In this document: one piece after another, positions 21,319 through 64,000 of the stretch
Numbering within the stretch: the stretch's first letter is position 1
Layout: the number at the start of each line of letters is the position of its first letter
NCBI GenBank assembly: GCA_002269645.1
Contig: NIVC01002640.1
Coordinates: 89,761-153,760, forward strand
Origin: Macrostomum lignano
Taxonomy: Eukaryota
Length of the DNA: 64,000 bases
Direction of reading: 5' to 3'
The notes under the pieces: generated by a model
What the model was told of the DNA's origin: nothing
The model's input: only the letters and a program-made list of their open reading frames with translations
Databases searched by the model: none
Made by a program: the position numbers and the translations under genes

Positions 21319-21359
21319 CTGGACGGGGCGGCAAGTGCTGCGAGCTGTCACACGCTTGA

Positions 21360-25530: not shown

Positions 25531-25567
25531 GCACTAAATCAAACACACTGGCAGCTCGCAGCCTCAC

Positions 25568-26231
25568 CGATGACGGTCATCCAAGGCCACAACTTGGCCG
25601 CATCGCCGGGCCCGCCCGTCTCGTCGGCCGCAGCCGCCGCCGCAGCCGCCGCCGCCGCTGTGTCGTCCAAATCCACCACGGCGTCTGCATCTTCCTCGTC
25701 CTCGTTGTCGATGTCGATGTCGTTCGGGTCGTCGTCTGGCCCGCTAGCGGCCACGGCGGCCACGGCGGTCAGGCCGCCGCGAACCCGGTGCTGCAGGCTG
25801 CGCACCGCGGCGTCCATCTGCAGTAGCGAGGCGCTCGTCGGCGCCGCCGCCCCCGTGGCCGCCGACACTCCGCCGCTGAAATAGCTGGCAGCCACCGCTG
25901 CTCCGGCGGCTACGGCGGCCGCCGCGGCCGACTGAGCGGAGGAGAAACGCTCTGTCCAGGGCTGCGAATCTGGCTGAGGCTGCTGCTGCTGCTGCTGCTG
26001 CTGCTGATGGACATGCGGATGCTGCGGGTGATAATGATGAAGCTGCAGATGCTCGGGATGCTGCTGCTGCTGATGGAGCTGATGCTGATAGTTTGACAGC
26101 GGTTGAAATGTCAGACTGTCTGACTGGTGCGCCGGGCTGACCGTCGACGCGGCCGCCACCGCCGCCGCGCTGAAAGCCGAAGGCTCAGCCACCGGTTCGT
26201 GCAGGACGCCGCCCAGACTGAAATAGTTCAT
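25568..26231 (-). CDS. Lox4: Central-class Hox gene, exon 1 (Ala/Gln/His-rich, hexapeptide WPWM)
   Basis: MNYFS-type Hox N-terminus and KLWPWMTVIG|GTGAGG donor at 25568/25567. The two exons total 1032 nt in frame (343 aa). Confidence 0.88.
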
Positions 26232-26232
26232 G

Positions 26233-26423
26233 CCAGCTGGGAACTGCCGGAGCTGCTTAGCTGGGAACTGCCGGAGCTGCTTAGCTGGGAACTGCCGGAG
26301 TCGCTTAGCTGGGAACTGCCGGAGCTGCTTAGCTGGGAATTTTCGGAGCTGCTTAGCTGGGAACTGCCGGAGCTGCTTAGCTGGGAATTTTCGGAGCTGC
26401 TTAGCTGGGAACTGCCGGAGCTG
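26233..26423. repeat. 24-bp tandem repeat (GCTGGGAACTGCCGGAGCTGCTTA), 8 copies, directly upstream of the Hox ATG
   Basis: Direct reading. Confidence 0.95.
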
Positions 26424-27443
26424 TGAATAATTTTCCTGTCTCTTGACCCTTCAAGCTATTGTTTTTGAGCCTAAAACTAGAGAATTGAGTTGCTGCTTGA
26501 GCTGAGCAGAGGGAAACGGCTGCTCAGCCAATGGCGGTGAAGACCGAGTCCGGGAGGCGAGTCGCACTGGCCGAGATTGGCTGGAGGCGGTGAGATGCGG
26601 CGCTGAGCTCAAGAGAATTCAGTTGGTCAAAAATTGAAGGGGCCACTTTTCTGTTTTAATTCAAATTTTTAATTCGAATTTTATTTGCAAAGTGGACAAT
26701 ACTTTTGGATGCTGGATGCCCCAGAACAAACAAATTAGGCAGCGATCTCTCCATTATTTAGCCTCCCACATCCCGCTTATCCTCTGTCCCCTCACACACT
26801 GCTAGACATCTCAATTTATCCAATTGTTAATCCTCAGGTATTTTCCCCTGTTCAATAATTAGTGGTGAAATCATTGTTGAATTTACATGGAATCTGTAGC
26901 CGCTAAAACACTGGTAGAGTTCGATGGAGCACATTGTGCTCAGACTCATTATGGGGGGGCGTTATAAATCACACTCCGAGCCGATGCCTATCAGCGGCCT
27001 CAGGCGGTCTGTACCCCTCCCCTCCCCCCTCACCTCGTGTCCGCTCCACTGACAGGGCTTGGCATAGCGGGGCATAAATATTTGACTTTCTCAACCCCCC
27101 TTCTCAGACATCCAGTGGGCGGGGCAGCCAGCAAAGACAATAAATAACTCCCCTTCTCCCCTTCTCCCCTAGCTGAGACTCTGCTCTATTACCAGCGCTT
27201 TATCTGCTTGATAGAAATGTATACGAGCTGCGCTGGCCCGGGTTGAAGCTGAGCAGTAAATCAGCTCAAGTGCGGATGGCCGGGCGAGGCCTGATGCCGA
27301 GCTCAGATAGTCTGGGGATTCCCACTGAGAGCCACCCCTGGATGGCTCCGTTGGACATGGGAGCAGAGTGGGAGCAACTAAGCCGGGTGTTGCTGTTGTT
27401 TCAGGCGTGAGTTTGCGAATAATTCTTTCTGATAAATTTTAAA

Positions 27444-30857: not shown

Positions 30858-30934
30858 TAACCCTAACCCTAGCCTAACCCTAACCCTAACCCTAGCCTAA
30901 CCCTAACCCTAACCCTAACCCTAACCTAACCCTA
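30858..30934. repeat. Interstitial telomere-like (TAACCC)n tract inside Helitron A
   Basis: CTAACCCTAACCCTAGCCTAACCC..., direct reading. Confidence 0.9.
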
Positions 30935-31739
30935 AAACATTGAAATTTCAGTAATTCTGAGTCATTATAGCACTACTACAGCATTATAGCGATTCCCTGC
31001 AAGCCTCGACATCGTAGGGATTCCCAAATGAATCTCTTAACTTCGACATGAAGCTTCTTTTATTTTTTACATTACGCTTTTTTTATCAGCGATCCCTCCC
31101 CTGAGGAGGCATCAAATAATGTAATAAAAAGTTTTCAATAAACTACATGTAGCTTCTGGCTTTAGCCTTGGAATCTCATTTATACCCCCGTGAGCCTTGA
31201 CATCTCAGCTATTCCCCCCGTAAGCCTTAACATGTCAGCGATGGCCCCCATAAACCTTGAAATCTAAAAAATCCCTTGTTATTCTGTTAACCTTGAAACC
31301 CGATAAAAATATAACCCTCAACCCACACCTGACCTAAACCTAACTTTAACCCAACCTAAAGCCTTGAAATCTCAGCAATTCTTCTCCCCTAAGCCTTGAC
31401 ATTTTAGTGATTCCTTCTTTAAGAATCACAGCACTATAACGATTTCCACCTAGCTTTGACATCGTAGCAATTCCCAAATGAATCTTTTAACTTCGACATG
31501 ACTTTTCTTTTATGTATACATAGTGCTACTTTTATTTTTTACATGACTCTTCTTCTATCAGCGACCCCCCCCGTGGCGAGCCAACAAAGAATGCAACAAA
31601 AAAATTGAGTAAAGTACATGAACTTTGAAGTAGCTTCTGACTTTTGCTTTGACATCTCAGAACCCCCCCCCGTAATGTCAGTTATTCTCTGAGAGCCTTT
31701 ACGTCTCAGTTTTTCTCCCCAGCACAGCATTATAGCTGC

Positions 31740-39109: not shown

Positions 39110-42100
39110 CGAGGCCAACTCCTCCTTCGGAGAAGAAAGGGGAAGAACTCCAATCAGCGGAATTCCATTCCCTGAACTCCATCAGCGGAATCCCATTTTC
39201 CAACACCTCTCCGCGCAACAGAAATCGTCTCCGTGAAACTGAACACTATCGAAATCCTCTCCGTGAAACTGAACACCATCGAAATATTCTCCGCGAAATA
39301 GAAATCCTCTCCGTGAAACTGGACTAAATCGAAATTTCTACGTCAAACAGCCCAGCTCTCAGAATTCATTGGTTAGGGTTAGGGTTAGAGCTACACACAG
39401 CTGCGTGTTGAAAGGCTCCATAAAAACATTGAACCAATTAAATTGCGCAACTTATTTCTCAGGCAGTCAGTATCAGCGTCGGTTAAAGTTAACAAAAAGA
39501 TTGCGCAATCTAAATCAGCCCTCCAATACACAGCAACCGACCCCCTTCCAATACGCAGTGCAGCTAGAAATTGAACCCCCCTACCAACTATTGGGGGGGG
39601 GGGTCGGTCGAACCCCCATTGAACTCCAAAATGAGCAAAATCTTTGCAGAAAGCTAAAAGTATGAAAATCTTTTCTTGAATGCTGTGAATTTAATTTTCA
39701 TATTTAAAGCAAAAAACTTATATCCCCGAACTCATCGCAGCAAGATCTTTCCAGCAATAAAAGTCTCGTCTCTCAAAGTTCAAAACTCGAGCAACAGTTA
39801 GTGTTTGAAACTTTCTGATTTTAAGCATTGAAATATCGAGTGTACGTTCACTGCCTGCTAAAGATGCTCGCAAGTTTATGCATTAAAATGCACTGAATTT
39901 CACTGTGCAAAAAATACACAGGGCTTCCTGTTAAAAAACAGAACACAAATAGTTGCGCAATTGTCTATAAAGTCAGTCAGTGAGCCAGGGTTCAAGTGTA
40001 CACACGCAGCCACTGAGAACGCGACCATCCCCCCACTTGAGAGAAAATACACTGCCAAGATAGAAAAATTTTATGGCGCAATCACTAAAATTGATGCAAA
40101 TTTTCAGCTCCAAGCAGAAAGAGGGGACAATTAAGATTATCAAAGGTCAAGACCGCCATTTTCTGCTTTTTTAGGGATCTTAAAAATTGAAAATGAAAGA
40201 TTAAAATAGCCTAAAGCCATCCTCGGAAAATTTGCAGTTTTCCCATATAAGTTTCAACGCTGAGTTGCAAGTATTCTAGGAGGAGTTATCCAACAAACAC
40301 ACACACACACAGACAAACAACGCACCAACTTTAGTATTAAGACGAGGCCAACTCCTCCTTCGGAGAAGAAAGGGGAAGAACTCCAATCAGCGGAATTCCA
40401 TTCCCTGAACTCCATAAGCGGAATCCCATTTTCCAACACCTCTCCGCGCAACAGAAATCGTCTCCGTGAAACTGAACACTATCGAAATCCTCTCCGTGAA
40501 ACTGAACACCATCGAAATATTCTCCGCGAAATAGAAATCCTCTCCGTGAAACTGGACTAAATCGAAATTTCTACGTCAAATAGCCCAGCTCTCAGAATTC
40601 ATTGGTTAGGGTTAGGGTTAGGGTTGACAGCTGCGTGTTGAAAGGCGCCGTAAAAACATTGAACCAATTAAATTGCGCAACTTATTTCTCAGGCAGTCAG
40701 TATCAGCCTCAGTTAAAGTTAACAAAAAGATTGCGCAATCTAAATCAACCCTCAAATACACAGCAACCGACCCCCCTTCCAATACGCAGTGCAGCTAGAA
40801 ATTGAACTCCCCCCCACCAACTATTGGGGGGTCGGTCGAACCCCCATTGAACTCCAAAATGAGCACAATCTTTGCAGAAAGCTAAAAGTATGAAAATCTT
40901 TTCTTGAATGCTGTGAATTTAATTTTCATATTTAAAGCAAAAAACTTATATCCCCGAACTCATTGCAGCAAGATCTTTCCAGCAATATAAGTCTCTCCTC
41001 TCTAAGTTCAAAACTCGAGCAACAGTTAGTGTTTGAAACTTTCTGATTTTAAGCATTGAAATATCGAGTGTACGTTCACTGCCTGCTAAAGATGCTCGCA
41101 AGTTTATGCATTAAAATGCACTGAATTTCACTGTGCAAAAAATACACAGGGCTTCCTGTTAAAAAACAGAACACAAATAGTTGCGCAATTGTCTATAAAG
41201 TCAGTCAGTGAGCCAGGGTTCAAGTGTACACACGCAGCCACTGAGAACGCGACCATCCCCCCACTTGAGAGAAAATACACTGCCAAGATAGAAAAATTTT
41301 ATGGCGCAATCACTAAAATTGATGCAAATTTTCAGCTCCAAGCAGAAAGAGGGGACAATTAAGATTATCAAAGGTCAAGACCGCCATTTTCTGCTTTTTT
41401 AGGGATCTTAAAAATTGAAAATGAAAGATTAAAATAGCCTAAAGCCATCCTCGGAAAATTTGCAGTTTTCCCATATAAGTTTCAACGCTGACTTGCAAGT
41501 ATTCTAGGAGGAGTTATCCAACAAACACACACACACACAGACAAACAACGCACCAGTTTTAGTATTAACGAGGCCAACTCCTCCTTCGGAGAAGAAAGGG
41601 GAAGAACTCCAATCAGCGGAATTCCATTCCCTGAACTCCATCAGCGGAATCCCATTTTCCAACACCTCTCCGCGCAACAGAAATCGTCTCCGTGAAACTG
41701 AACACTATCGAAATCCTCTCCGTGAAACTGAACACCATCGAAATATTCTCCGCGAAATAGAAATCCTCTCCGTGAAACTGGACTAAATCGAAATTTCTCC
41801 GTCAAACAGCCCAGCTCTCAGAATTCATTGGTTAGGGTTAGGGTTAGGGTTAGAGCTACACACAGCTGCGTGTTGAAAGGCGCCGTAAAAACATTGAACC
41901 AATTAAATTGCGCAACTTATTTCTCAGGCAGTCAGTATCAGCGTCGGTTAAAGTTAACAAAAAGATTGCGCAATCTAAATCAGCCCTCCAATACACAGCA
42001 ACCGACCCCTTCCAATACGCAGTGCAGCTAGAAATTGAACCCCCCCCCTACTAACTATTGGGGGGGGTGTCGGTCGAACCCCCATTGAACTCCAAAATGA

Positions 42101-48371: not shown

Positions 48372-48863
48372 ATGACTGCCGCACCCAACACCGCTTCAAG
48401 AATCAGTGCATTCGATACGGTAAGACCAGAGAGATGGTCGGTGTACGAAGAACGGTTGGAGCAATATTTCATTGCCAAAGCCATCATCGATGAAAACATA
48501 AAGAAGGCTGAGCTCATCACAGTGGTAGGTGAAGATTGCTACTGCCTGCTGCGAGATCTGCTGTCTCCAGACCTCCCGAAAAGTAAGTCTTATGACGAGC
48601 TGATAACGGCGCTAAGAAACTATTTCGCACCGAGGCCAAAGAAAGTTGTAGAGCGCTACAATTTCTACAATCGAAATCAACAAGAGGGCGAAGTAATCTC
48701 AGAGTATATAGCAAATTTAAGGAAGCTGGCTGCAACCTGTATGTTTGGGGTCTTTCTGAATGAAGCTATCAGAGATAAGTTTGTTTGCGGATTGCGCAGC
48801 AAGCTCATTCAGCAGCGTCTTCTGCAAGAAGATGACATCGCGCTAGACGAGGCCATCATCTAG
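48372..48863 (+). pseudogene. gag: Ty3/Gypsy gag, truncated
   Basis: FD....W..Y.ERLEQYF...LL..VG...Y..L.DL...SY.EL...L..YF.P...ERY.F..R.Q..GE.I..Y...LRKLA..C.FG.FL..A.RD.FV.GL, a typical Gypsy capsid region; ends abruptly at the junction. Confidence 0.88.
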
Positions 48864-49138
48864 CGCGACTTCTGCCTGTCGGGGGTGCGGCCTGTTGGCG
48901 AGTGGGACGTCCTGGTCGCCTGTTGGCTCGGGCATGCCGGTTGGTTCATCCGGCCGGCTGTTCTGTCCGCTGTCGCGTTCCCCGGGGCCACTCGGCCACT
49001 CGCCTGGGAGACTCGCTTGACGTGGGTGGCGTGCCTGGAGCACCTCTGGCCGCCCCTCTGGAGCTGCAGGGTGTTGCCGTGGACTTTTGTCACGGTCCAT
49101 GGCGAGAAGTAGAAGGCATGAGGGGGCTTCTGGGACAA
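48860..49138 (-). pseudogene. C-terminal tail of a Gypsy pol/integrase in the opposite orientation
   Basis: PWTVTKVHGNTLQLQRGGQRCSRHATHVKRV resembles the GPY/F SH3-like integrase tail, followed by a low-complexity linker and stop. Confidence 0.55.
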
Positions 49139-49476: not shown

Positions 49477-50041
49477 GTTCAGTAGTATGCTCGAGTAAAA
49501 AGTTTAAAGAAATAATTATCTCGACTTCTAGGAAAAAACCTTTCACCTCCAGTTTAATCAACATAGTTCAGTAGTATGCTCGAGTAAAAAGTTTAAAGAA
49601 ATAATTATCTCGACTTCTAGGAAAAAACCTTTCACCTCCAGTTTAATCAACATAGTTCAGTAGTATGCTCGAGTAAAAAGTTTAAAGAAATAATTATCTC
49701 GACTTCTAGGAAAAAACCTTTCACCTCCAGTTTAATCAACATAGTTCAGTAGTATGCTCGAGTAAAAAGTTTAAAGAAATAATTATCTCGACTTCTAGGA
49801 AAAAACCTTTCACCTCCAGTTTAATCAACATAGTTCAGTAGTATGCTCGAGTAAAAAGTTTAAAGAAATAATTATCTCGACTTCTAGGAAAAAACCTTTC
49901 ACCTCCAGTTTAATCAACATAGTTCAGTAGTATGCTCGAGTAAAAAAGTTTGAAGAAATAATTATCTCGACTTCTAGGAAAAAACCTTTCACCTCCAGTT
50001 TAATCAACATAGTTCAGTAGTATGCTCGAGTAAAAAAGTTA
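49477..50041. repeat. 89-bp tandem array containing AGTAGT, about 6.3 near-identical copies, at the left edge of the Polinton
   Basis: Unit AGTAGTATGCTCGAGTAAAAAGTTTAAAGAAATAATTATCTCGACTTCTAGG... at 89-nt spacing. Confidence 0.95.
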
Positions 50042-50044
50042 CAG

Positions 50045-50677
50045 TTACACTTGTTCTCTGGGGCTCCTGCAGAGAGGACAGGTTTGCTCACCCTGAGCAA
50101 GTGCGGTTGTCAAACACTGGTTGCAGAAGACGCCCCTGCAACATGTAGTAAAAACAGGATCTTGTGGTTCGTGTTGACAATAGGGGCACAGCCCTCCAGA
50201 ATTTGACCAATCCGTAACCATTGGCTCAGCCTTCGGCTGGATCGGTGGTTGTGATGGACCAGGCTGCGACGCGGCCAGTTGGGTTGGCGGTTGAAGCCAT
50301 GTCGTCGGTGGCGGTGGCAAATTTGTTAACGCCGGCGATTCCACAGGCGGATGGTTAGGCAGTGGTGGATCGGCCTCTTGGAAGCGGATATTATCCGCTT
50401 CCTCTTCTTCCGCACGTCTTTCTTGATTGAATCTAGTTTGTGTACGAACGGTTTCTTCTAGATGGTGAAGTTTATTTCGCGAGGATCGATACTCCCGAAG
50501 ACGTTGCAAAAATAGTTCGTTTTCCTTATATTGCGGCTCCTCTTCTTGTAGAAATACTTCTATATTAATCCTTCTGAAGTCAGATTTTCTGTGGCTGGCT
50601 GTGAGGGGTCCTAGTTTACTATTTTGTTTCCGTTTCAATGCAATAACACGTTCCTTGAGAGTCGAAAGAGAAGGCAT
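50045..50677 (-). CDS. RING-finger protein (putative E3 ligase) with a Pro-rich linker, Polinton accessory gene
   Basis: C-terminal CPYC...CCRGVFCNQCL...CPLCR RING-like motif. Confidence 0.75.
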   Translation of the reverse strand: MPSLSTLKERVIALKRKQNSKLGPLTASHRKSDFRRINIEVFLQEEEPQYKENELFLQRLREYRSSRNKLHHLEETVRTQTRFNQERRAEEEEADNIRFQEADPPLPNHPPVESPALTNLPPPPTTWLQPPTQLAASQPGPSQPPIQPKAEPMVTDWSNSGGLCPYCQHEPQDPVFTTCCRGVFCNQCLTTALAQGEQTCPLCRSPREQV

Positions 50678-51037
50678 GTGCCAAGTGTGGCGAGACGTGC
50701 ACAGTTCTTCCTTGAATTTATACGCTCATACTCGTAGGCTATTTTTAGATATTCATACAGTATAGACCAACTAGGCGGGCCACATTCCGAGGCCAAATCG
50801 GCGGGCCGAGGCCAACTCGGCGGGCCAACTGGCCTCGCAATTTGGCCAATAATCAATATCAATCAAGGAGGGAATCTCAACATACACAGTCCATGCATGC
50901 TAATGGCGGCGAAGCGGTTGACTTTTTATTTTCTGCTCTTAGCTCTCTGGAGAATGAGAATCTCTCTTGTGCGCAACTCTTTAGGGAATAAAAAACTGTA
51001 CTTACTCAAATCCACACTTGCTCATGCCCTTCCCGAT

Positions 51038-51538
51038 TCAAGCGCCCCTTTCTACCCCCAGCTCTTTCAGCAGTCTTCCCAATTCATTGTTAGGAGCGCA
51101 CAAAATAAACTCTGCTCCCGTGCGTTCGCCCTCTCTCCCCGTGCACTCGCCCTCTCTCCCCAAACACCCGCCCTCGGCGTACACCCCCAACCCCAGTTTT
51201 GTCTTACTAAAAATAACAGCTTTAACTAGCTTCCGAGCGATCGACTCACGAAATCCGCTTGAAGCCCCTATATTGTCTAGTCTCTTAAGCATTTCTTTGT
51301 CCCAGCGATTCTTCTCCTCAGGAAAATCTCTATATTTAACATCGTGCCACATGCAGACAGAGTCTAGCTCATTCACAGGCTCATGCCCAGGATTTGGATT
51401 ATTGTTTTTATCTAACTGTATTTCAAGAGGATTCAAAGGCCCGCAATATTTATAGCCGGGAAGTGTCCAGCCTTTGTTTGGATGAGGAAGCTTTTCTATC
51501 AGTCCATGTGAATCTATTTTACCACCAGAGCGTTGCAT
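51038..51538 (-). CDS. Parvovirus VP1u-type phospholipase A2 domain protein
   Basis: WTLPGYKYCGP (Ca-binding loop) and NELDSVCMWHDVKY (catalytic HDxxY); KLGLG motif after the domain. Confidence 0.85.
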   Translation of the reverse strand: MQRSGGKIDSHGLIEKLPHPNKGWTLPGYKYCGPLNPLEIQLDKNNNPNPGHEPVNELDSVCMWHDVKYRDFPEEKNRWDKEMLKRLDNIGASSGFRESIARKLVKAVIFSKTKLGLGVYAEGGCLGREGECTGREGERTGAEFILCAPNNELGRLLKELGVERGA

Positions 51539-51568
51539 TATTTTATTTAAAATTTTCTTTTTAAATAA

Positions 51569-52603
51569 ATGACAGATCAGAAACTTAAAAAACTCTACTA
51601 CAGCGACAAAGGATTCTTTGTAGGCAAAAATGCCGTTAGTAAACTCATGGAGCTGAGTAAGGAGCCAAAAGCTACAGTAGAAAATGGCTCTCTAAGCAGG
51701 CTGTCTTTCAAGTCTATTTCCCACCAGTAAAATTTGAAAGGCCCCATTTCAGTATTTATAAACCTAATGATGCGCACCAAGCAGATCTTTTGTTTCTCCC
51801 CAACGACTCAGGCTACAAGTATGCTCTTACAATTACAGACGTTGCCTCCAGATATAAGGAAGCGAGACCGCTTAAGACGAAGAAGTCAGAAGCAGTTGCA
51901 GCCGCCCTCCAAGATATTTATAAAAACTCTCCGCTCACATACCCCCAAATCTTTATGACCGACCCGGGTAAGGAATTCATGGGTGTAGTGAAATCCCTTA
52001 TGGAAAAGAAAAACACAGAGATTCGCTATGGCAGAACTGAGCTCCACAGAGACCAGGCTTTTGTGGAAAGATTCAATCTAACTCTAGCCAAGAGACTATT
52101 CACTAAGCAGACAGCGCAAGAACTCAAACTGAGTGCGGGCAGTACTATACCAAGTGGACAGAAAGACTCCCCACTGTTATAGAGCAACTGAACAATGAAG
52201 TCACACGCATGACTGGATTGAAACCATCCCATGCAATTAAACAAGACACTGTCGAACTTAAGGCATCTCATAGAACAGACAACAACACGACAACCCCACA
52301 CAACACACAAACACAAAACACACCTCGAACTACCCTAAGCTTCCAGGAGTTGAATCACCATACATACTGACAAACTCTGAGTTTCTACGCTTTTTATATC
52401 TACCTGGAGAGCTAGAGAAGGACACCAAAAGAAGAGCTACAGATCCATACTTCAGCCTTGATGTGCATAAAATAGACAGACATTTTACCTCCGACTCCGG
52501 TGACTATTACTTTTTATCTCAAGCCTTTAACCCTAAATCCCCCACGCGGTCATTCACTAGAGCTGAACTCCTAGTGATACCAGCTGACACAGAAATTAAT
52601 TAA
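51569..52603 (+). pseudogene. int: Retroviral-like (rve) integrase, frameshifted
   Basis: Reconstructed MTDQKLKKLYY...HQADLLFL...DVASRYK...TDPGKEF...AFVERFN...RMTGLKP...RRATDP, with the D-D-E triad present; frameshifts near 51685 and 52165 and probably near 52540. Confidence 0.9.
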
Positions 52604-52619
52604 AATATTAAAATAAAAA

Positions 52620-53066
52620 ATGACAAAGATTGAAACCAGAACCATCAATAAACTCAATAAAATCATTGAATCAAAGAAACCAGGTATTATATCAATTAAA
52701 GGTGCCAAAGTAAAAATCGATCCCACGCAGCAAATACTTCAGTGTAATGAGCAAAGACACAGCATCACAGATGAAAAGTCAGGAGGAATCCTACCATTAG
52801 CAGCTCTTATTCCGATCATTGCAGGCGCTGTAAGTGCCGCAGGTGGTGTAGCTGGAGGTGTAGCAACTGCTGTTAAAGCTGGGAATGATAGAGCCCACCA
52901 GCTGGAATTGCAAAAGATTGCAAGAGACAAAGGTATAACAATTAAGGCAGGAGAGGGCTGCCCCGATCGTGATGATTGTGAGAATGAAAATTCTGTAAGC
53001 AAGTCTGACATTGTCAAAGCAATCATGACACTGCACAATGCTGGGTTTACAATAATGCGCATGTGA
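52620..53066 (+). CDS. Adenovirus pX(mu)-like core or membrane-active precursor protein
   Basis: SGG-ILPLAALIPIIAGAVSAAGGVAGG resembles the adenoviral pX GG-ILPLLIPLIAAAIGA segment after a protease site. Confidence 0.6.
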   Translation: MTKIETRTINKLNKIIESKKPGIISIKGAKVKIDPTQQILQCNEQRHSITDEKSGGILPLAALIPIIAGAVSAAGGVAGGVATAVKAGNDRAHQLELQKIARDKGITIKAGEGCPDRDDCENENSVSKSDIVKAIMTLHNAGFTIMRM

Positions 53067-53190
53067 TGAGGTTTTAAACCCCACTTTATCCAGCTTCATA
53101 AACCTAGCGCTACTTATAGGATGTAGAAACAGTTCAACTTTTCTATCAGGGTGGTCACCCTCAAAAATTTGTTTTATTTTAGAGAAAAAA

Positions 53191-56100
53191 ATGCCAAAAG
53201 CTAATCCAGCAAAAGATTTAGTCAACAAACATTTTTCAAAAGGCGTCTCATTTCAAGACAAAAGTAATTTACTAAGAGAAGCATGTAAACAAAAGTTTAA
53301 CACCGACCCCGGTCACCTGGGAAGCTATGAAAAACAGTTGGAAATCATCAACCAATTAGAATCCAACCAGTATGTGCCTATACAAAATCCTACAAAAGAA
53401 CACCAAAAGAGGAGTCGCAACTTAGTTAACAAATACGAAACTCTCACTGGTGAAAAAGCAAAGTACCCACAAAATAAGCAGGAACAAGAGAAATTAGAGC
53501 AATTAATCCATTTAAAAGAGTCGGAGCTTGCCACTGAAGAGATTAATTTTGCACAGAGGAAGTTTACAGAACATTACATAGAGTACACAATCCCAATTAA
53601 CGGCACCAACGGTACCACCGCAAACATCTACGACTATAAAGACAGCATCCAATCAGTTGTTGATCACACACTCAAAACACGCAAGACTTTTAAACTACAG
53701 ATATCATTCAAGATTGCGTTTTATATGCCTGCAAAACCCACTGAGCATCTCGAGTATTACTGTATTACATGACAACAAAGGCAAAGCCATTCACCCCAAC
53801 AGACACACTGGATCCTTTCCTTCAAGATGTCAATAAGAAAATTGAAGCGTTTACATCCAGAGGTTCCGGATGGGTCGTGGGAGGGATTCAAAGAGCGACT
53901 GTCATGGTCATGAAATATGACCCACTTAAAGCCTCCTCTTATATAGAGCTCCCACACAAGCTAGCCGGCAAAAAAGCTTGCATAAATGTTAAAAATAAAG
54001 ACAATTGCTGTGCTCTATGGGCAGTTCTTTCTGCACTTCTTTATGATAGTGTCCCTCACCACCCCGAAAGAACCTCAAATTATCAAAATTATTTCAACTA
54101 CTATCTCATCGAATGCGAAAAGAAGGGAATCAGGTTTGACAAAGGAGGCTTGGCAATCTCTCAGATCCCAAAGCTAGAAGAAGTGTTTAATAACAAAATT
54201 AGAATCACAGTCTTTGAGTGGAGTGAGAAAACTGAAAAAGTTCAACCGGTCAGATGTAGCAAAGACGTTTTAGATCCTGAGGGGAAAAGGCGGACTGAAG
54301 TGGATCTTCTAGTGATTGGTAATTTACTAGAGGAGGCTCACTATGTTTGGTTAAAGATCTTTCAAGACTCATTCACAAGCAGTTGAATAATCATCACGAG
54401 GCTGTTGCCATCTGCCGCTTGTGCCTTAAGCATTACAGTGGACCTGAACGCTTTGAAAAGCTAACAGAGCATGAATTATCATGCGAGGATCACCCGACAA
54501 ACTGCTCTCTTCCTTCAGCTGAAGAGAAGTATCTCCGGTTTAAGAACTATCACAAGATGGAGAAGCTCCCATTTGTTGTATATGCTGATTTTGAATGCTC
54601 AATCGTGCCGGAAACACAAAAACAAACTCAAACTCAAAAACATGTCCCCAATTCAGTAGCATATGCCTTTATTACTACAAAAGGACTTGTTGAGTCTAAT
54701 TATTTCTTTGGAGAGCAGTGTGTGGAGCAGTTTATTGCCAGAATGTTAGAGTTGCAAAGAGTGATTAGCACCCTTCAACCTATTCCAATAAGTATGTCTG
54801 AGGAGGATGAAAGCAATTTCCTATCAGCAACTCATTGCCACATCTGCAGGAAACATTTAACTTGCACTAATATTAAAAACCCCACCGTTAGGGACCACTG
54901 CCACTTTACTGGGAAATTTAGAGGTGCAGCGCATAACACCTGTAATCTAAAGCTAAAATCGAACATTCATGATCTAACGATATTTTGTCACAACGCAAAG
55001 AACTATGACATGCATTTAATAGTTGAAAAAATCGGCATGATTCCAGACATACACCTTGACTGCATCGCAGAGAACAAGGAGAAGTTTAAGTGTGTTGATA
55101 TTAAACAGGATAATTCGGGTAAAGGTGAAGGTTCGGGTACAGGTAAAATAAGACTGAAGGATTCATATCAATTTCTAGCTGCCAGTCTAGACGAACTAAG
55201 CAAGAATCTAAAAGATGAACAATGTACATATACAAAGATGTTTGCAAGTAAAATTACAACAGTGATGAATCATTTAAACTCCTGAGAACCAAAGGCTTCT
55301 ACCCCTATGAAAATATTACTGGGTATCACGTATTTGAAGAAGGTTTACCACCACAAGAAAAGTTCTTTTCAAAGCTAACAGACTCTGGAATCTCTGACAA
55401 AGACTATGAGCACGCGAAGCATGTCTATAATTACTTTAATTGTCAAAACTTCTTCCAGTATCACCTGCTTTACCTCTACACAGATGTGTTTCTGCTGGCC
55501 GATGTGTTTGAAACCTTCAGATACACCTGGTACACAGCATATGGCCTCGATCCAGCACATTATGTGTCTCTGCCTGCCACTAGCTGGGAATCTTTGCTTA
55601 AAATGAAATGGGATCAAGATCCAGATTGGTACATTGAACTTCTTACAGACATTGACATGTACAATTTTGTCGAATCGTCAAAGCGAGGGGGATCTCAATT
55701 TGTGTTAACAGGTATGCAAAAGCAAACAATCCCTACATTGATCTTACAATAAGGAGCAGCCCTCAAACTACATTACTTACTTGGACGCTAATAATCTCTA
55801 CGGGTGGGCGATGAGTCAAGATCTTCCAGTTAGAGATTTTCGATGGCTACCCTCATCAGAACTAAAGTGGGACTTTTCATTGGCTGCCATTTATGAGGTT
55901 GATGTTTACATTCCACCAGAGCTTCACGACTATTTCTGACTTTCCACCCTTCCCAGAGAACATCAAGTGCCCGAAAATAATCGAAACTCCCAATGATAAT
56001 AATGGAACTTGGCACCTGTCAGGAACAGAAAAAGAACATACAGAGAAACTAACACAGAATCTAAACAACAAGACACGTTACAAAATCCATTACAAACTGC

Positions 56101-57040
56101 TTCAGTATTTTATCTCACTTGGTTGCAGGGTCACCAAAGTTCACAGGGCTCTTACATTTACAGAGGAAGCGTGGATGAAACCCTACATTGATAAGAATAC
56201 CCAGTTTAGGACCAAAGCAACCAACGACTTTGACAAGAACCTCTTTAAGTTGGCCAACAACTCTGTCTATGGCAAGACTCTTGAGAATGAGCGGAAAAGA
56301 ACAAACCTGAAACTTGTTACCTCATCAGAGCCTGCTGTTATTCAGGCAAATATGTCAAAGCCAACATTCAAAGAACTCCATATCTTTAATAGCTACTTAG
56401 GTGTGATCATATTTTACAAAACCAAGGTGACGCTGCGCAAGCCGATCTATACAGGTGTCACTGTTCTCGACGAATCAAAACGTCTGATGTACCAGTTCTT
56501 CTATGGCATGAAGCAGCAGTACAAGGATAAAATGAAACTCTTGTACACTGACACAGACAGTTTTATTATGGACATTCAAACAGAAGACATTTATCAGGAC
56601 ATGCTGCAGCAAAAAGATTTGTTTGACTTGTCTGAGTATGATGAATCTTTCAGGACACAGAATGGCGATCAAGTGTTTGACGCCACTAACAAGAAAGTGA
56701 TTGGGAAAATGAAGGACGAGATTGCTGGTGACATAATCACTGAATTCATTGGGTTGAGAGCAAAGTCCTATTTTATAAAATGTGAGTCGTCAGACCCAAT
56801 AAAAAATCAAAGGGAATTCCGAAACGTGTAGTTAGGAAGGAAATTAATGAAGCTGAATACAGAGACGCCTTGAATTGCAACAAAAAGACATCACATGAGT
56901 TCTCAAAGCTACAATCTAAAAACCATATTATTCACACAATTCAGCAAAAGAAGATTGGACTGTCAGGTGCAGATAACAAGAGATTCATTTTTGATGACAA
57001 TATTAACAGTCTACCGTTCGGGCATTGGAGATTAGGTTAG
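53191..57040 (+). pseudogene. polB: Protein-primed family B DNA polymerase with an endonuclease VII-like insertion, multiply frameshifted
   Basis: YADFEC (ExoI), HNAKNYD (ExoII), DSYQFL, KGFYPYE, YLDANNLYGWAMSQ (motif A), KLANNSVYGKT (B), YTDTDS (C), GLRAKSY, DNKRF; also CHIC...VRDHCHFTGKFRGAAHNTCNL. At least 6 frame breaks. Confidence 0.95.
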
Positions 57041-57104
57041 GAGTTGGGTTTAGGAGGTGGAGATAGGTTTAGGTTTAAGAGAAAGTTTAATAAAACTCAA
57101 AAAA

Positions 57105-57454
57105 ATGACGACAAATAACTTTCTTGAAGATTTGGCTAACGAACTGGAAATCCCAAACTTTAGAGGAATATTTATGAGGGACACTCTGCCTGATTTTCCT
57201 CTAAGAAAGGAATGCGGCATCATGAACTTTGACACCACCGATAAGCCAGGATCTCATTGGGTTTGCTGGGTGATTGATCCCGATCGCAAGCACAAGTGTT
57301 ATTACTTCGATAGCTATGGGACGGCAGTACCAGAAGAGCTAAGAAATTATATGAAGGGAAAAAAAATAAAAAAATTTATCGCTCAGACTTTATTCTCCAA
57401 GGTCTTAGCAGTGATATTTGCGGTGAGCTGTGCATGACTGTTTTGTTGCAATGA
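57105..57454 (+). pseudogene. Adenain-like cysteine protease (virion maturation), one frameshift in an A-run
   Basis: F.GIFMRD...GSHW...YFDSYG and, after a shift near 57370, ILQGLSSDICGELC, giving the H/D/Q/C catalytic set. Confidence 0.9.
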
Positions 57455-57508
57455 CCAAAACACGAAAGACCTACAAGGAAATTATTCGTACCTGTGTTTC
57501 ATAGGGGT

Positions 57509-58235
57509 TCATTGTGCATTTCTCGTCGTCCTTCTTACCGAATTTCTCGTTGTCCTTCTTTCCGCATAATGTTGAAGAACTTTCTCGAGTTCATTTCTCA
57601 GCTGACTCATGTCATCAGTACCGACCATGTTCAAGTTCATTCGAATTGATTGTTCATAAAGATCCTGAATGGTTTTGAACTCATCCTCTGAAATGAACTT
57701 ATCCTCGATTGCCCTTGAAATGTACCCTATGATTGAAGTGTGCACCCCTTTCTCTTTTACTTGCTTCTCCTGTAGCTGTTTTAGTTTTTTTCGCCTGTTT
57801 CGCGCTAATGCTCCAGTAATTGCTGAAATAAGTCCACATGCAGCACCCACAGAGCCGAGTGGGATTGCGATTGGGGCTGTGATGACTGGCAACGTGAGAC
57901 AGCTGCAGCAGATCCAGATAGAACAGACACAGATCCTAGAATCATATTGCTGTAGTCGAAAAATTTACAGTGGCTGTCATAGCGCTTAATTTTCTTTGTG
58001 TTGTGGAAAATATTTTTTTCAAGATCATCTCGCATTTTTTGAATCTCCACCAGTCGAAACTGCTGAGAGTTACAAGTAATGACGGGGTAGAGTTTTTGTT
58101 GCTCATATTGAGGTGCATTCAGATTCGGTGCATTCAGGCTTTGTGTGTTCGAATTCGGTGCCATTGGTTTGGTGCTGTCGGTATTTTAGGTTCAACGTAT
58201 TGAGACTGATCGTATAGAGAATTTTGTTGGGCCAT
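57509..58235 (-). pseudogene. Conserved Polinton membrane protein (FRL..I... helical region plus two hydrophobic helices), two frameshifts
   Basis: Reconstructed MAQQ...KIPTAPNQ...KLYPVI...QQFRLVEIQKMRDDLE...FDY.NMILG..S..SG...LTLPVITAPIAIPLG...G.I..AI.D..IS.DEF, a pattern I recognise from animal Mavericks/adintoviruses. Confidence 0.7.
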
Positions 58236-58285
58236 TTTTTCCCTAGAAAAAATAAAAAAATTACAAAACTATCCGGTTTGAAGAT

Positions 58286-59055
58286 CTATTGTTTTGAAAA
58301 AAGATCTGTTTTCTTTTGATTTGATTTGATTTTGATGAAATTCGATAATTTCATTATAGACATGACCGGACGAGCAGTAGATTCTGCTTCATCAATAGCA
58401 ATATCACGAAGATTGAGTGTTCTCTCCAGACGATCAAGCCTCCTTATTATTTTACCCCAAGCGCTATACATTCCGTTTAGATAGCTACTGTGTGATACAT
58501 CCTTTCTCTTTAATGCTTCAAGTCTTTCTTTGATTCGATCATGCAACGCTGTTGACTGAGTCATGAACTCTTCTAAATTCCTCACTTTACCTGTGTTGGT
58601 TGCGACGTTTTCTTTAATTCTATCATGCAACGCTGTTGACTGGTTCATGAACTCTTCTAAATTATTCACTTTAGCTGTGTTTGTGAAAACTCCTCCTTCA
58701 AGAATACGCATCCGTCTATCAGTGGAATTTCCCAGAAGATTAACTGTCGATCTTAAGCTGTTGATTTGCGAGACTGCCGAAGTTATTTCTGACCTAAGTT
58801 CATTAGTTGCGTTTAACAACGGCACATAAAGCTTATCACTTTCAAACTTCTGCCTAGCTACTTTAAGCCTGAGATCTTCCATGTTTATTTGCAACTGGTG
58901 CATGGAGCGCTCCAGGGCTTTCAGTCTGTTTTTATTCAGTTTGATCTCTGGGATCTTTTCGTCGCTGTTGATATATCGCCTGTCAAGTATGGATATTTGA
59001 GCTGATGTAAGAGCGCTGTTGCAGAAATGGATTCACCTGCAAAATTAATAGACAT
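58286..59055 (-). CDS. Coiled-coil (fiber/spike-like) protein with a 28-aa internal duplication; probable frameshift near the 5' end
   Basis: Track ORF 58286-58903 extends in frame to about 59020; the upstream ATG at 59055 (MSINFAGES) is in another frame. Repeat NT[A/G]KV[N/R]NLEEFM[N/T]QSTALHDRIKE occurs twice. Confidence 0.55.
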
Positions 59056-59071
59056 CTTTTATTAGCAAATT

Positions 59072-59872
59072 TTAAATTACAGTTCTTTTTTCCTTGTTGA
59101 TCATGACAAACTGATAGGGTTGGTTCCACTTGTCATAGCAAAGATTAACGAATTCCTCTTGTGAAATCTTTCTGCTTGAGTTTTTTGTTGGATTTATAAA
59201 ATAGGCAGGCGCAATGACCTCATTGTAAAATCTTTTTAGCCTATCCTGTGGAATGGTTGGAAACAGGAGAATCAGATTGCAGTTCCCACGAATTGTTTTG
59301 TTCGGGAGCTCGAACCAGTTCTGTGCAATGTAAATTACATTACAATTGTTATGTCGCCCTCTTGTAAAATAGTTTTCTATCTGCTTCTGTGGGCCTGTCA
59401 TACAATCATCAAAGACGATCAAATGCTTTCTCCCTTTTTCTAGCTCATCTGGTTGGGGTAGAAGTTTGGTCTTTGGATCAGCCTGCGGATCTCCATAGGT
59501 GAACACTTTAATGTTCTGCCATTTTTCATTGTCTTTGAGGTGCTTTGCATATTCAGCAGCTACAATTTCAGGGTTACTGGGAAGGCTCATTTGGTTATTA
59601 AAACATTGAATAATGTCCTCTTTGTTCAGTTTGTTTTGCAATCCAGAAATCAGCATTTTATACTCATCTTGATACAGTGTGGGAGAGTAGATGTGCAGAG
59701 TGTCATAGTCGATAAAGCCAGGTCTAAGAAGCATGTTAAAGACTCTGAATGTTTTACCTGAACCTGATGAACCAACAACAATGCATCTGAAGTGACTCGG
59801 GATTGACTCGTGATGAGAAAACTTAATCTGATTACGCGTCCAGTGAGGATTGAAGTCGTTTGAAAAGTCCAT
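59072..59872 (-). CDS. A32/FtsK-like genome-packaging ATPase (intact)
   Basis: Walker A GSSGSGKT, Walker B LIVFDD, then RGRH and IYIAQ...IRGN; ATG at 59872. Confidence 0.93.
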   Translation of the reverse strand: MDFSNDFNPHWTRNQIKFSHHESIPSHFRCIVVGSSGSGKTFRVFNMLLRPGFIDYDTLHIYSPTLYQDEYKMLISGLQNKLNKEDIIQCFNNQMSLPSNPEIVAAEYAKHLKDNEKWQNIKVFTYGDPQADPKTKLLPQPDELEKGRKHLIVFDDCMTGPQKQIENYFTRGRHNNCNVIYIAQNWFELPNKTIRGNCNLILLFPTIPQDRLKRFYNEVIAPAYFINPTKNSSRKISQEEFVNLCYDKWNQPYQFVMINKEKRTVI

Positions 59873-59914
59873 TTTTTCTATGATTGAAAAAAAAATTAAA
59901 TAATAAATCATTTA

Positions 59915-60020
59915 GAAGATGTGTCATTTCGGGACTTGAATGTGTCGTTTTGGGACTTAGATGTGTCATTTTGGGACTTAGATGTGTCATTTTGGACTTA
60001 GATGTGTCATTTCAGGACTA
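59915..60020. repeat. About 21-bp direct repeats (AGATGTGTCATTTTGGGACTT) in the Polinton intergenic region
   Basis: About 5 copies between the ATPase start and the upstream gene stop. Confidence 0.85.
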
Positions 60021-60031
60021 GTCTTATACTC

Positions 60032-60439
60032 TTACATGTCTTGTACCCTTGAAAAGTACCCTTTAGTCAAATTTGAAACCGCTTCCTTTTTAATGCTAGC
60101 TCTCATCTTCTCATAGACTGCAGGGTCCACATTGTCTGGATTTGGGGCCAGCGGAGCCAGCGGTTGAATCTCTTGTTTAGGTGTTACAGTATCCTTTATC
60201 TTTTTGGCTGCTGTGGCTACACTGCCAGCCGCTTCGGCAACGTTCTTGATGTTCTCTTTGTTCTCTCCAATGACCTTAAAAATCTTGGCCCCCTGAGCGA
60301 TCAAATCGGCAAGACCGTTCCCTGAGCGTTCTTTTCTTGGATAGTGGCCTGCAGGGAAAAGTCCAGATCCGCGTTTAATGAGATTAAGTTCCTCTTTGTC
60401 ATAGTATTTGTCAATGTCTTTTTCGAAAATAAGTGGCAT
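60032..60439 (-). CDS. Small putative virion core protein with xGxG-hydrophobic protease sites
   Basis: ATG at 60439 (MPLIFEK); RGSG-LF and SGNG-LADL followed by an amphipathic helix. Confidence 0.55.
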   Translation of the reverse strand: MPLIFEKDIDKYYDKEELNLIKRGSGLFPAGHYPRKERSGNGLADLIAQGAKIFKVIGENKENIKNVAEAAGSVATAAKKIKDTVTPKQEIQPLAPLAPNPDNVDPAVYEKMRASIKKEAVSNLTKGYFSRVQDM

Positions 60440-60619
60440 TTTTACTTGAAATAAATTATTTTTTGTTGAACCGCGAAAGCAGAAGCTCTCTCGCCCTCTT
60501 ATCGATGTATTTTCTCTCAAGCATTTTATTGAGGATGTGAACGAACTCTTTTCTATTCTCATCTTTCATTCCGGTCTTTGCTGCTCCTAGAAGAACCGCT
60601 ACTCGCTTGTAGATTTCAG

Positions 60620-61666
60620 CTATTCCTTTTCCAGTTGAAGGCGGTTGGTCTTGAGGTTGTGGAGTTGGTTGGGCTTGTGCTGCTGGGGAGGTGATGCAAA
60701 AGACTGCTCACTTTCAGAGATGGAACTGTCATGTGGCGCCTGTCTTTGTTGAGGTGTGAAAACTCTTTGCTTGATTCTGTTCATTCGATCTGGAGAGTGT
60801 TGTTCTAAGAGTTGCCAGGCATCTGGGTGATCATTTTTATATTCAGCTACTTTCAAAGGGTCTAACTGCTCGAGTTGACTAAGTACTTGTTCTTCTGTGG
60901 AATGTTGCTGCTGTTGTGGCGGTTGCTGTTGTTGTTCTAGATATTTCATCTGATCAATGACTTCCCCCTGATCTGGCAAACCAAACCATTGTTTAAAGTG
61001 CTTGTACTTTTTGAAATTAGTCAGGTTGACACCGCCATCGTACATGTGTTTCAGAACTTCTGGGACCTTTAGTATTTCTATATCTCTAGCAAGAGAAAAA
61101 ATCACTAGATCTCTGTAGTTCTTTAGCTGTTTGTCCGAGATTCTCTCTTGGTTCTTGGTCATAAAATTCAGTAAGGTTTCTGTGAAAGGAATGCTCTTAG
61201 TTTCCGAGCCTTTGACAACAGAAATATGTTTCTTATTTATGTCGATATAATATTCCACTGGTTCATTATAAATATTTTTTCTCCACATACTTATTCCAAA
61301 TACATATTTCCCATCATGTTCTACACGCTCTACTGGTCCAAAAATGTTATCTGTCACTTTTAGTTGCTGTTGTTGTGGTTGTGGTTGTTGTGGTTGTGAT
61401 TGTTGTAGTTGCGGCTGTATCTGTGGTGCTTCTGGAATTTTGCCCAAAGCCTTTTGCACCTGGGTTTCCTGTATGTCGTCGATAGTTTCTTTGACCTGAT
61501 CAATATTTTTCTTAGCTTCTCCATACCCGGGTTTATGAAACTCTGTAGCTGCTTGGACAAACTCATTGTAGGATTGTTGCTCCTTATTTATTAGCCCGGT
61601 AACTCGTTTCTCTGCTTGTGCTAGCTTCTCCAATTCAGATATCTGCTGTGTACTTTTTCGCTTCAT
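60620..61666 (-). CDS. Gln-rich Polinton protein of unknown function (348 aa)
   Basis: Long uninterrupted ORF with an A-rich start context like neighbouring viral genes; no recognised motif. Confidence 0.65.
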   Translation of the reverse strand: MKRKSTQQISELEKLAQAEKRVTGLINKEQQSYNEFVQAATEFHKPGYGEAKKNIDQVKETIDDIQETQVQKALGKIPEAPQIQPQLQQSQPQQPQPQQQQLKVTDNIFGPVERVEHDGKYVFGISMWRKNIYNEPVEYYIDINKKHISVVKGSETKSIPFTETLLNFMTKNQERISDKQLKNYRDLVIFSLARDIEILKVPEVLKHMYDGGVNLTNFKKYKHFKQWFGLPDQGEVIDQMKYLEQQQQPPQQQQHSTEEQVLSQLEQLDPLKVAEYKNDHPDAWQLLEQHSPDRMNRIKQRVFTPQQRQAPHDSSISESEQSFASPPQQHKPNQLHNLKTNRLQLEKE

Positions 61667-61697
61667 TTCTTATTTTATTTTATTTTTAGTTAAAAAA

Positions 61698-62981
61698 ATG
61701 AACGACCCACTGACACCAGTTTTCTACAAAATTAACAAGCCTATTTTGAGTGATGATAGCACAATCAAAGCGACTCAGGTAAGAGTTCCCAGTCAGGAAA
61801 ATCAGAATGAAACTAATCTTGGTCCTGGCCAAACACTGACATTTACATACAATGGATGTTCGTCTTTGGTAGTGTGCACAGTCTAAGGAGCGGCTTCTAT
61901 ATGACGTATCAATTCAAAACTAAAGGAGGCGCAGACGCCGCTCATGCTAATGATGATCTACACAATGCGGATGTCGCACTAACCAGTAATTTCTGGGCTT
62001 ATATGTTCAAAGAGTTTAATGTGTCCAATGGAAGTACAGAGTTGGAAAGAATAGCAAACTTTGGTGTGGTCTATGATACCCAGTGCTTGATTGAGAACCC
62101 GGATTTTATTCAGATGGGGAGCGGTGCTGGATTCATCCCCAATGAACAGACAGGAGATGAGAATGACCCTGGTTACAAAAGAGAAAGGAGAGATACAACT
62201 ATGCTCTTGTTGGTGAGAACGATGCTGCTAAGAATCGCTGTTTAGGTCTGTAGATATTTTTGTACCTTTGAGGTTTATGAGTGGTTTCTGTAATAGTTTC
62301 AATCGGTTGACAAGCAACTTTAGCTACACATTTAGACTGACTAGAGATGATCGGAACAGAGGAATTTGGTCGGGGGCCAATCATACATCGATGGAGATTA
62401 AGCTAACTAGCGTGGAGCTGTACTTAGAAATTATTGAGCCCAAGACTGCACTCAAAGCTGAATACTTGAAGGCGATTGAGAAAGACATTGATGTTGCTTA
62501 TACAGCTTATATGTGCAGAGATGAGTGGAATGACGCAAGACACAATATTTGCATTAAAGAAGGCTCCTGTAGCAATCCAAGGTACATTATTGTCACTATG
62601 AGGAATACAACTAATGTAGGTAGATATCTACATGGAAACATTCGATCGATTCAACATGAGATCAGTGACAATTTATACCCTGCATTGCCACAAAATGGGA
62701 ATTTCTCGGAGAACAAGATTAGTAAGTTTTACAATGAACTGTCGGACTTGGCTGTCAAAGAGAATAACGGTATTGTTTTGACAACATTGCAGTATAAAAA
62801 ACTATATCCAATATTTGGTGTTGATGTGACTGCTAGACAAATGCCTACAGACAATAGCCCTGTTAACATTGTGACTAATATCGAGCGGAAAGAATTTGGT
62901 GCCGCAACGGCTGTTGATCTGTTTATTATCTATGCATTTGAGAGGAAGATCAAGGTCAATATGATCAAACAACTCGTCTAG
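61698..62981 (+). pseudogene. Major capsid protein (double jelly-roll type), frameshifted
   Basis: About 420 codons across three track ORFs with beta-rich Maverick MCP-like motifs (DDST...Q, SGFY, SNFWAYMFKEF, DIFVPLRFMSGFC, PRYIIV, YP, LYPIFGVD); position beside the ATPase and minor capsid gene fits. Confidence 0.8.
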
Positions 62982-63013
62982 TAAAGTTTGAATAATTTTT
63001 TTTCAATAAAAAA

Positions 63014-63925
63014 ATGGAAGCCATAGCCGAAAGACTAAACAACATTGTTTCACACTCTAAGGAGAGCATTCCAATCACTGTAGAGGTCGCATTACTGAGT
63101 CAAACGGAATCTTCATTCAAAATTGGAGCAACCACTTCGTTTGGATCCCGAGGCGATTACCACGTCTATCTCAATGATTTCACTGGGTGGTCAAATGTTC
63201 CCAATGTGACAGCGGAAAATAACAAGTTTTATTACAAATGGAAGCGTACTACAACAGAGGTTGTGATATTTCCTGTCAGCACACAGAGCGTGGATACTTA
63301 TAATTACTTCTTGGAGAACGTCTTCACTAAACGAAAGCATTTTTGAGATACCGGATGAAAGCAAACCAGAAAATAAACTGTTCCCTGTTAGATTAACTTA
63401 TGATCTAACTGTCATGAGAGTTGTCTTGCAAGTTCATAAGGACGCAGAGGTAGAGTTTAAAGATGGCACTTGGTATCGCGAGTTGGGATTTGAAAAGAGA
63501 GTTTATGGTGGCGCCACAGACCAAAGCCCGCTGCAGGCGCCTGGCACTGTTGCTGTGTGTCCCGGCTAATATCCGGTATGTACTTGGCGCCAAATATCGC
63601 TGACATTGTCAAAGGTTTGAATATATTAATTCGCAGCAATCTGAGCCATGATTGGATATTCAAAAGGCAAACGAACCAACATACTTTTAACATTTCAAAC
63701 TCTGTTGCTGGTGGCAAAATGCTTGTTCAAAAGCCAAACCCCGTGAAAAGAGTGATTCTGAGTAATAGAGAGATACATGAAATCATTCTGCAGTTTGAAA
63801 CAGAGGATGGCGTTGGTGTCGATTTTAACGGGGAAGAGTTTGTGCTAACAATTATTATGAGAGAATGTGAGTCGTCTTTCAGACTTGTAAAATTACGATA
63901 TAAGCCGCCAGGTACAACCGTGTAG
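63014..63925 (+). pseudogene. Minor capsid protein (penton, single jelly-roll), frameshifted
   Basis: VYLNDFTGWSNVPNVTAENNKFYY...ELGF...ADI....NILIRSNL...P.P...I.EI.LQFETEDG..VDFNGEEF.LTI, a typical Maverick minor capsid pattern. Confidence 0.8.
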
Positions 63926-64000
63926 TTGGCTACTACAACTGCCTTATAACTTCAGCAAAGTTATAATAGCTGTCAAAATTGTTAATGACTACTCCGTGTT

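Follow-up and report, generated by a model that had tools for sequence, protein, structure and literature searches.

A many-copy Polinton family in Macrostomum lignano whose predicted membrane protein carries conserved late-domain-like motifs

Do Polintons form particles, and by what route would these exit cells and pass from host to host? These questions are raised by a 64,000-nucleotide stretch of the Macrostomum lignano assembly GCA_002269645.1 (contig NIVC01002640.1, forward strand, positions 89,761 to 153,760; G000:C2640:89761-153760 in our numbering), called the window here; the contig stops where the window stops. An earlier note, made from the letters alone, had described a near-complete Polinton/adintovirus-like provirus at its right end, and had proposed an undescribed virus lineage. 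We read the element as a Polinton/Maverick of a many-copy family, with both capsid genes under purifying selection, that is likely cycling, now or recently, via virus particles (probability about 0.8). This reading draws on both ends of the element and its target duplication, on the empty sites, on its genes and the folds of its capsid proteins, and on selection and conserved motifs.

The left end of the insertion has the following features.

48372–49107, forward strand: host repeat that received the insertion, probably a long-terminal-repeat retrotransposon remnant, with a gag-like open reading frame (ORF) at 48372–48863 (Retrotrans_gag, E 4e-5)
49102–49107, forward strand: left copy of the target-site duplication (TSD) GCGAGA, repeated after the right terminal inverted repeat (TIR) on contig C3866
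49108–49407, forward strand: left TIR of about 300 bp, starting AGTAGA and with internal 81-bp repeats, from comparison with sister copies and the right TIR
49477–50036, no strand: 89-bp tandem array of 6.3 copies that are 99% alike, shorter in two sister copies

The earlier note began the provirus at 49477, which is the onset of the internal tandem array and not an end of the element; comparison with sister copies puts the start at 49108, at the outer edge of an inverted repeat of about 300 bp. The note's advice to look for a right TIR and a 6-bp TSD on another contig was borne out. A genome search with the right terminus and the 6 bases preceding the left end gave a single match, on C3866, which aligns to window 56373–64000 at 99.1% identity and extends 710 bases beyond, to the right TIR. 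The GCGAGA duplication is perfect (window 49102–49107 and C3866:8345-8350). The flank of the insertion has 35 matches in the genome; at all five empty-site loci examined the host repeat runs on without a break from the left flank into the sequence found past the right TIR, and in the four whose match starts at the first flank base the two flanks overlap by 6 bases. Since the duplication is perfect, the flanks are contiguous at empty sites and the right TIR lies on C3866, this is one integrase-type insertion, about 15.6 kb long by arithmetic, inside a gag-bearing host repeat. Its left and right TIRs are 89.8% identical overall and fully identical in the first 50 columns.

With Polintons/Mavericks (Orthopolintovirales) the element shares AG...CT inverted termini, a 6-bp TSD, a size of about 15–17 kb and the following genes, the capsid assignments resting partly on fold models.

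51569–52603, forward strand: retrovirus-like integrase, broken here (rve, E 6e-9)
53191–57040, forward strand: protein-primed PolB, in several pieces here (DNA_pol_B_2), with a putative vOTU Cys/His pair and an EndoVII/HNH-like insert
57105–57570 (end approximate), forward strand: adenain-like cysteine protease, broken near its end (Peptidase_C5, E 0.004)
59072–59911, reverse strand: A32/FtsK-like packaging ATPase, open (Pox_A32, E 3e-6, above cut-off; dN/dS, the ratio of non-synonymous to synonymous substitution rates, 0.06)
61698–62981, forward strand: double jelly-roll major capsid protein (MCP), in pieces here (PF21738, DJR-like MCP, E 3e-8)
63014–63871, forward strand: penton, the minor capsid protein with a single jelly roll, fragmented in this copy and assigned by the fold model of a sister ORF

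The virion set listed in the earlier note thus holds by Pfam for PolB, integrase, ATPase and MCP and by fold for the penton, while the Pfam match of the protease is under cut-off, as is that of a sister protease (Peptidase_C5, E 7e-4). Protease homologs occur in 12 of 80 metagenome loci. Integrase ORFs are open in sisters (331–345 aa); no chromodomain was found in them by Pfam, a 345-aa open sister ORF matching only rve at E ≤ 0.05. The catalytic columns of PolB are kept in 58–60 of 60 relatives, and at the expected vOTU place (domain position from PMC11071308) an N-terminal Cys is kept in 60 and a His in 59 of the 60, Pfam giving no OTU match. The insert in PolB (CxxC...DHCH...CN, window 54800–55000) is present in 112 of 150 PolB relatives; an HNH insert, which may be the same domain, is called unique to nematode and oomycete pPolB2 in a part of 10.1101/2023.08.22.554363.

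Both capsid proteins, modelled from open ORFs of sister copies, are predicted to fold as jelly rolls, as in Polintons/Mavericks and as the earlier note had demanded of them. The MCP model is a double jelly roll (pLDDT, the predicted local distance difference test, 60.5) whose best Foldseek matches in the PDB are the MCPs of Paramecium bursaria Chlorella virus 1 (PBCV-1), Sputnik, iridovirus and mavirus (best E 2e-12); among the 50 BFVD matches listed, identity to it does not exceed 12%. The penton model (pLDDT 73.2) matches the mavirus penton with Z 12.6 (root-mean-square deviation 7.2, 226 aligned) and Sputnik chain N with Z 11.8. Two copies carry a second partial penton-like gene near a TIR (C1330, L025:1784-2242; C1835, L027:2167-2625) with 72–73% DNA identity.

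The family comprises at least 150 loci. Counts are lower bounds, as 40 of 634 candidates were scored in the TIR search of the genome and 150 of 738 in that for MEM, the membrane protein discussed below, which has at least 151 matches, most without stops. The host genes of TSG101 and ALIX type each lie at three near-identical loci, so the assembly may be redundant, which would affect copy counts. Both ends are held by seven of the 12 other regions fetched (12.5–17.1 kb long); among these seven the TSD is perfect in five, has a single mismatch in one and is missing in one. Twenty of the 24 sequencing runs listed with the element hold it, from seven studies, all of one organism. Copies share 94–99% identity in the replication half and anything from 74% to 99% at the capsid end, a difference suggestive of module exchange. 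In all 12 genes with synonymous changes dN/dS is 0.06–0.41 (MCP 0.10, penton 0.08), as estimated from open ORFs only and from non-independent pairs; the family, both capsid genes included, is on these estimates under purifying selection. For the RING gene, three near-identical copies show zero synonymous changes.

The late-domain-like motifs that the earlier note saw lie in MEM.

57509–58235, reverse strand: MEM, about 240 aa, broken here, with PTAP, LYPVI, a coiled coil and a hydrophobic hairpin

As the gene is interrupted in this copy, PTAP (58170–58181) and LYPVI (58078–58092) do not share a frame in the window. MEM begins with an N-terminal tail that varies, followed by a coiled coil that is conserved, the hairpin and a helical end. 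We counted motifs in 20 homologs (14 database proteins, four metagenome ORFs, families A and B, the latter introduced below), six weaker and mostly fragmentary metagenome matches being excluded. P[ST]AP occurs in 13 of the 20 and strict YPxL in nine, where shuffling of whole proteins leads one to expect 0.06 and 0.44; on clustering at 40% identity the figures are four and five of six clusters. The tails that hold the motifs can hardly be aligned elsewhere, and the motifs differ in order and spacing from one homolog to another. In a sea-anemone homolog (Actinia tenebrosa according to its source) and in P0191, PSAP, PPxY and LYPxL overlap in PSAPPLYPEL; the family B protein (23% identity, profile E 2e-10) has PSAP at its C-terminus. 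The element's 13 other reference ORFs all lack P[ST]AP. Judged by these alignments and shuffles, the motifs are conserved far beyond chance. Late domains are described as often multiple and as independent of position (parts of PMC8402826 and PMC7995964), and the host genome encodes TSG101-type UEV and ALIX V domains.

From the known gene families, PolB would use protein priming to copy the linear DNA once excised, the ATPase would package it into the jelly-roll capsid, the protease would mature core proteins such as pX, the phospholipase A2 (PLA2) would help incoming particles through the endosome membrane, and the integrase would insert the element DNA. MEM would recruit host TSG101 and ALIX via P[ST]AP and YPx(L/I/V), and particles would exit in vesicles or by budding, not by lysis. 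This egress step through the ESCRT machinery (sorting complexes of the endosome that are required for transport), with MEM as a candidate adaptor like orbivirus NS3, we hold tentatively, at a little short of even odds. The broader proposal, that many animal Polintons encode a dedicated two-pass ESCRT adaptor which releases non-enveloped jelly-roll particles inside vesicles, is more tentative again.

Orbivirus NS3, from a non-enveloped virus, has a coiled coil and two membrane helices and reportedly recruits Tsg101. Like MEM, the NS3 of bluetongue virus is a small membrane protein with a PSAP late domain, but it pairs PSAP with PPxY (a part of PMC7995964), whereas MEM mostly pairs P[ST]AP with YPx(L/I/V). 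Homology of the two was rejected as not significant: Orbi_NS3 (PF01616) matched two of 17 homologs at E 0.05 and 0.09, with at best 13.5 bits against a cut-off of 27. An Atlas score of 0.77 for MEM against NS3 is a lead only. Among the top-ranked literature matches, with subscription journals and Repbase outside the scope, we found none that joins Polintons or adintoviruses with late domains or ESCRT, and MEM-like egress goes unmentioned in the accessible passages of PMC8097293, PMC11071296, 10.1101/2025.02.07.637071 and 10.1101/2023.08.22.554363.

Several points weigh against this reading. The virus-like cycle is deduced here from the genes, the two TIRs of this insertion share just 89.8% identity, PolB frames are broken in nine of nine copies compared, and the dN/dS estimates are limited as given above. 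The two-pass topology of MEM comes from hydropathy only. Its homologs are related by ancestry, with 12 of the 20 in one cluster, and four lack both motifs (the short distant L044, L064 and L100, and P0187), so the motifs are not universal. The ALIX-type word of this family is LYPVI and not strict YPxL, and the loose pattern YPx(L/I/V) was set post hoc, after the data had been seen. The motifs could instead serve sorting or turnover of MEM itself.

One rival, which we regard as possible and rather doubtful, is that MEM is lytic or pore-forming, with ESCRT motifs only for its own trafficking or for membrane repair, and that egress is lytic. A part of PMC8502044 likens a gene of the Beta module of adintoviruses to the membrane-active peptide cupiennin, and MEM may be this 'Cupiennin' gene; its helical hairpin, the homologs without motifs and a scatter of weak hits on families of two-pass membrane proteins, none reaching the cut-off, fit such a role. 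Multiple late motifs independent of position are, however, the pattern of budding factors in the late-domain sources cited above, and Pfam gave MEM no significant toxin or gasdermin match. We keep the adaptor reading of MEM, as a tentative one.

The accessory genes and the relatives of the element bear on whether it is the founder of a virus lineage not yet described, marked out by an entry and egress toolkit of unusual size. The remaining genes are as follows.

50045–50677, reverse strand: C3HC4 RING protein, 210 aa, open (Pfam E 4e-8), a passenger in the variable left slot
51038–51538, reverse strand: parvovirus-type PLA2, 166 aa, open, stand-alone with no pX tail (PF08398, E 6e-14)
52620–53066, forward strand: pX-like precursor of a core protein, open over 148 aa (above cut-off for Adeno_PX, E 4e-7)
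58286–59032, reverse strand: coiled-coil protein with an 84-bp repeat and heptads
60032–60436, reverse strand: conserved ORF of about 129 aa with GSG motifs (ORF129; dN/dS 0.12)
60456–61666, reverse strand: conserved ORF of about 400 aa (ORF403), in two pieces here (dN/dS 0.22)

Pfam confirms the PLA2, pX-like and RING assignments of the earlier note; of its fiber-like coiled coil the heptads stand, while no fiber match was found by Pfam or other homology searches. PLA2 (dN/dS 0.16) also has a weak match to VP1 of adeno-associated virus (E 0.016), and the pX-like protein has a 29% identical homolog in family B. ORF129 is possibly a protease-processed core protein. ORF403 had no family match in Pfam or PHROGs, and the PHROGs scan of the element proteins gave nothing useful.

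RING is an optional, swappable and rare passenger: the family has three open copies, one with stops and three partial, it is missing from six of nine copies compared, and its slot is occupied by unrelated ORFs in others. The variable slots of different copies are filled by unrelated ORFs of 146–661 aa (L019:2794-3405, L025:3252-3932, L015:1125-1898, L012:868-1410, L024:4705-5142, L027:3163-5145), and those of them scanned had zero Pfam or PHROG matches above cut-off. The left slot of copy C1330 also has a weak tRNA match (36 bits, L025:2690-2760).

As for known systems, the weak PF03175 match of PolB (60.7 bits) is as expected of Beta-type adintoviruses, and the N-terminal Cys/His pair lies where their vOTU would be expected (parts of PMC8502044 and 10.1101/2025.02.07.637071). 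With the Beta Cupiennin-GasderminX module the element has putative membrane-active accessory genes and a pX-like domain in common; it differs from adintoviruses in its stand-alone PLA2, separate pX gene, and lack of a gasdermin match and of a Pfam integrase chromodomain. PLA2X, a fusion of PLA2 with a C-terminal pX-like domain, is tied to Alpha modules (a part of PMC8502044), whereas here the integrase separates PLA2 from pX, which is encoded on the other strand. Because the adintovirus integrase has a C-terminal chromodomain (a part of PMC11071296) and ours has none by Pfam, we file the element as a Polinton that works like an adintovirus. The animal association of adintoviruses (parts of PMC8502044 and PMC11071296) is found here too, the contig carrying Hox homeodomain and OATP genes.

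Such a new lineage is unlikely. For it speak the separate PLA2 and pX genes, unlike PLA2X, and the MCP, which differs from known Polintons in being 20–26% identical to a large metagenome cluster and in holding a long-branch clade of its own, as judged from a quick tree. Of 14 MCP homologs found, 11 are 40–76% and three 22–24% identical; in the tree, made without named references and leaving out proteins below 340 aa and metagenome ORFs below 380 aa, the MCP and 10 unnamed environmental proteins form a clade on a branch of 2.3 changes per site (support 100), its only relatives there being environmental. Scanning IMG/VR with the MCP and with MEM turned up no relatives. Against a new lineage, PolB has 26,193 representatives as relatives, 3,261 of them at E ≤ 1e-30, with a top match 41% identical; RING is a rare passenger; and the toolkit recurs. 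PLA2X, pX-like tails, GasderminX, Cupiennin and a 'Fiber' label are given for adintoviruses in a part of PMC8502044. Among 80 distant metagenome loci (many short fragments; MCP 20–26% identical) phmmer found PLA2 in 10 and MEM in four, and L044, L071 and L100 combine PLA2 and MEM with integrase, ATPase and MCP; for pX, the coiled-coil ORF, ORF129, ORF403 and RING these 80 loci gave no homologs. A second Polinton family in the genome, family B (C67 and C4094), carries an F5/8-type domain gene besides PLA2, pX, RING and MEM. The earlier note offered the count of accessory genes, with a likely flatworm host, as the mark of a candidate undescribed lineage; that count does not define one, and flatworm Polintons are already published (parts of PMC8532177 and 10.1101/2025.04.19.649669). 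The element adds one more member to a well-known group, with a distinct capsid branch and one new egress idea.

Family B (L109-L113; G000:C67:349000-366000; C4094) has PolB 34–36% and MCP 21% identical to those of the element, and carries, besides its gene with an F5/8 type C domain, a PriCT-2/D5_N primase-like ORF. A truncated copy of this element's family abuts it at C67. A group I intron (RF00028, 88.9 bits; L111:398-781, equal to G000:C67:365398-365781, reverse strand) adjoins its PLA2 match; this was the sole intron match in 13 loci scanned, and the window PLA2 is open and uninterrupted.

Reading frames are the remaining difficulty. The window copy has frame changes in integrase, PolB, MEM, ORF403, MCP and penton, and its protease ORF terminates early. 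Much of this breakage is likely assembly noise, since the two contigs covering this insertion differ by 38 gaps and 26 substitutions over 7.6 kb, and ORF403 and penton, broken in the window, are open in C3866; the two contigs could instead be alleles, which would count against noise. Of 98 frame-changing indel sites, 66 are confined to a single sister and 12 separate the window from at least six of eight sisters. Homopolymer error as the cause was not clearly supported (3–9 of 18–24 1-bp indels per pair lie in such runs, which hold 22% of bases), so the error reading rests on the contig overlap. Depletion of GGNCC, reported for another family, is not present in this element (19 sites, 24.8 expected). 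That this is a purely intracellular, recently decayed transposon family, with capsid and accessory genes as relics of a viral ancestor, is quite improbable: the PolB breaks in all copies compared and the lack of clear homopolymer enrichment fit it, but it is in the capsid genes that dN/dS is lowest, with dS high, the overlapping contigs show more gaps than substitutions with broken genes open in the other contig, and two-thirds of the indel sites are private to one sister.

An A/T-rich leader ending in an A run before the ATG is common to 12 of 13 genes (window 51538–63014), several with a T-tract and AG; RING is without it, and gene starts were taken partly from sister copies. The leader could be a late promoter or a splice or trans-splice acceptor. 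In the eight runs aligned here, which are contigs and so uninformative on transcription, window 52500–60700 has no splice joint listed.

The host is an animal, by the Hox and OATP genes on the same contig; a search for mitochondrial COX1 gave just a weak match below cut-off and no mitochondrial contig. A central-class Hox gene, which looks Lox4/Ubd-A-like, lies at window 20951–21403 and 25539–26450 (reverse strand; homeodomain E 3e-21), with a WPWM hexapeptide-like exon upstream, and OATP transporter exons lie at 3399–4118 and 10010–11299 (reverse strand). The window further holds a DDE_Tnp_1_7 transposase remnant (13168–13848, forward strand), a 1,075-codon open frame without a Pfam match (16554–19781, forward strand) and short interstitial TTAGGG arrays in opposite orientation (30898–30951 and 41817–41858).

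Polinton particles have not been observed, according to a part of PMC8097293, and the late motifs bear on how such particles would leave cells. If MEM is an ESCRT adaptor, it would be the missing exit route for Polinton virions, and exit in vesicles could explain the difficulty of seeing free particles. The motifs predict particles in extracellular vesicles and a dependence on host TSG101 and ALIX. With a young, many-copy family whose two capsid genes appear to be under selection, the host could be used as a test system.

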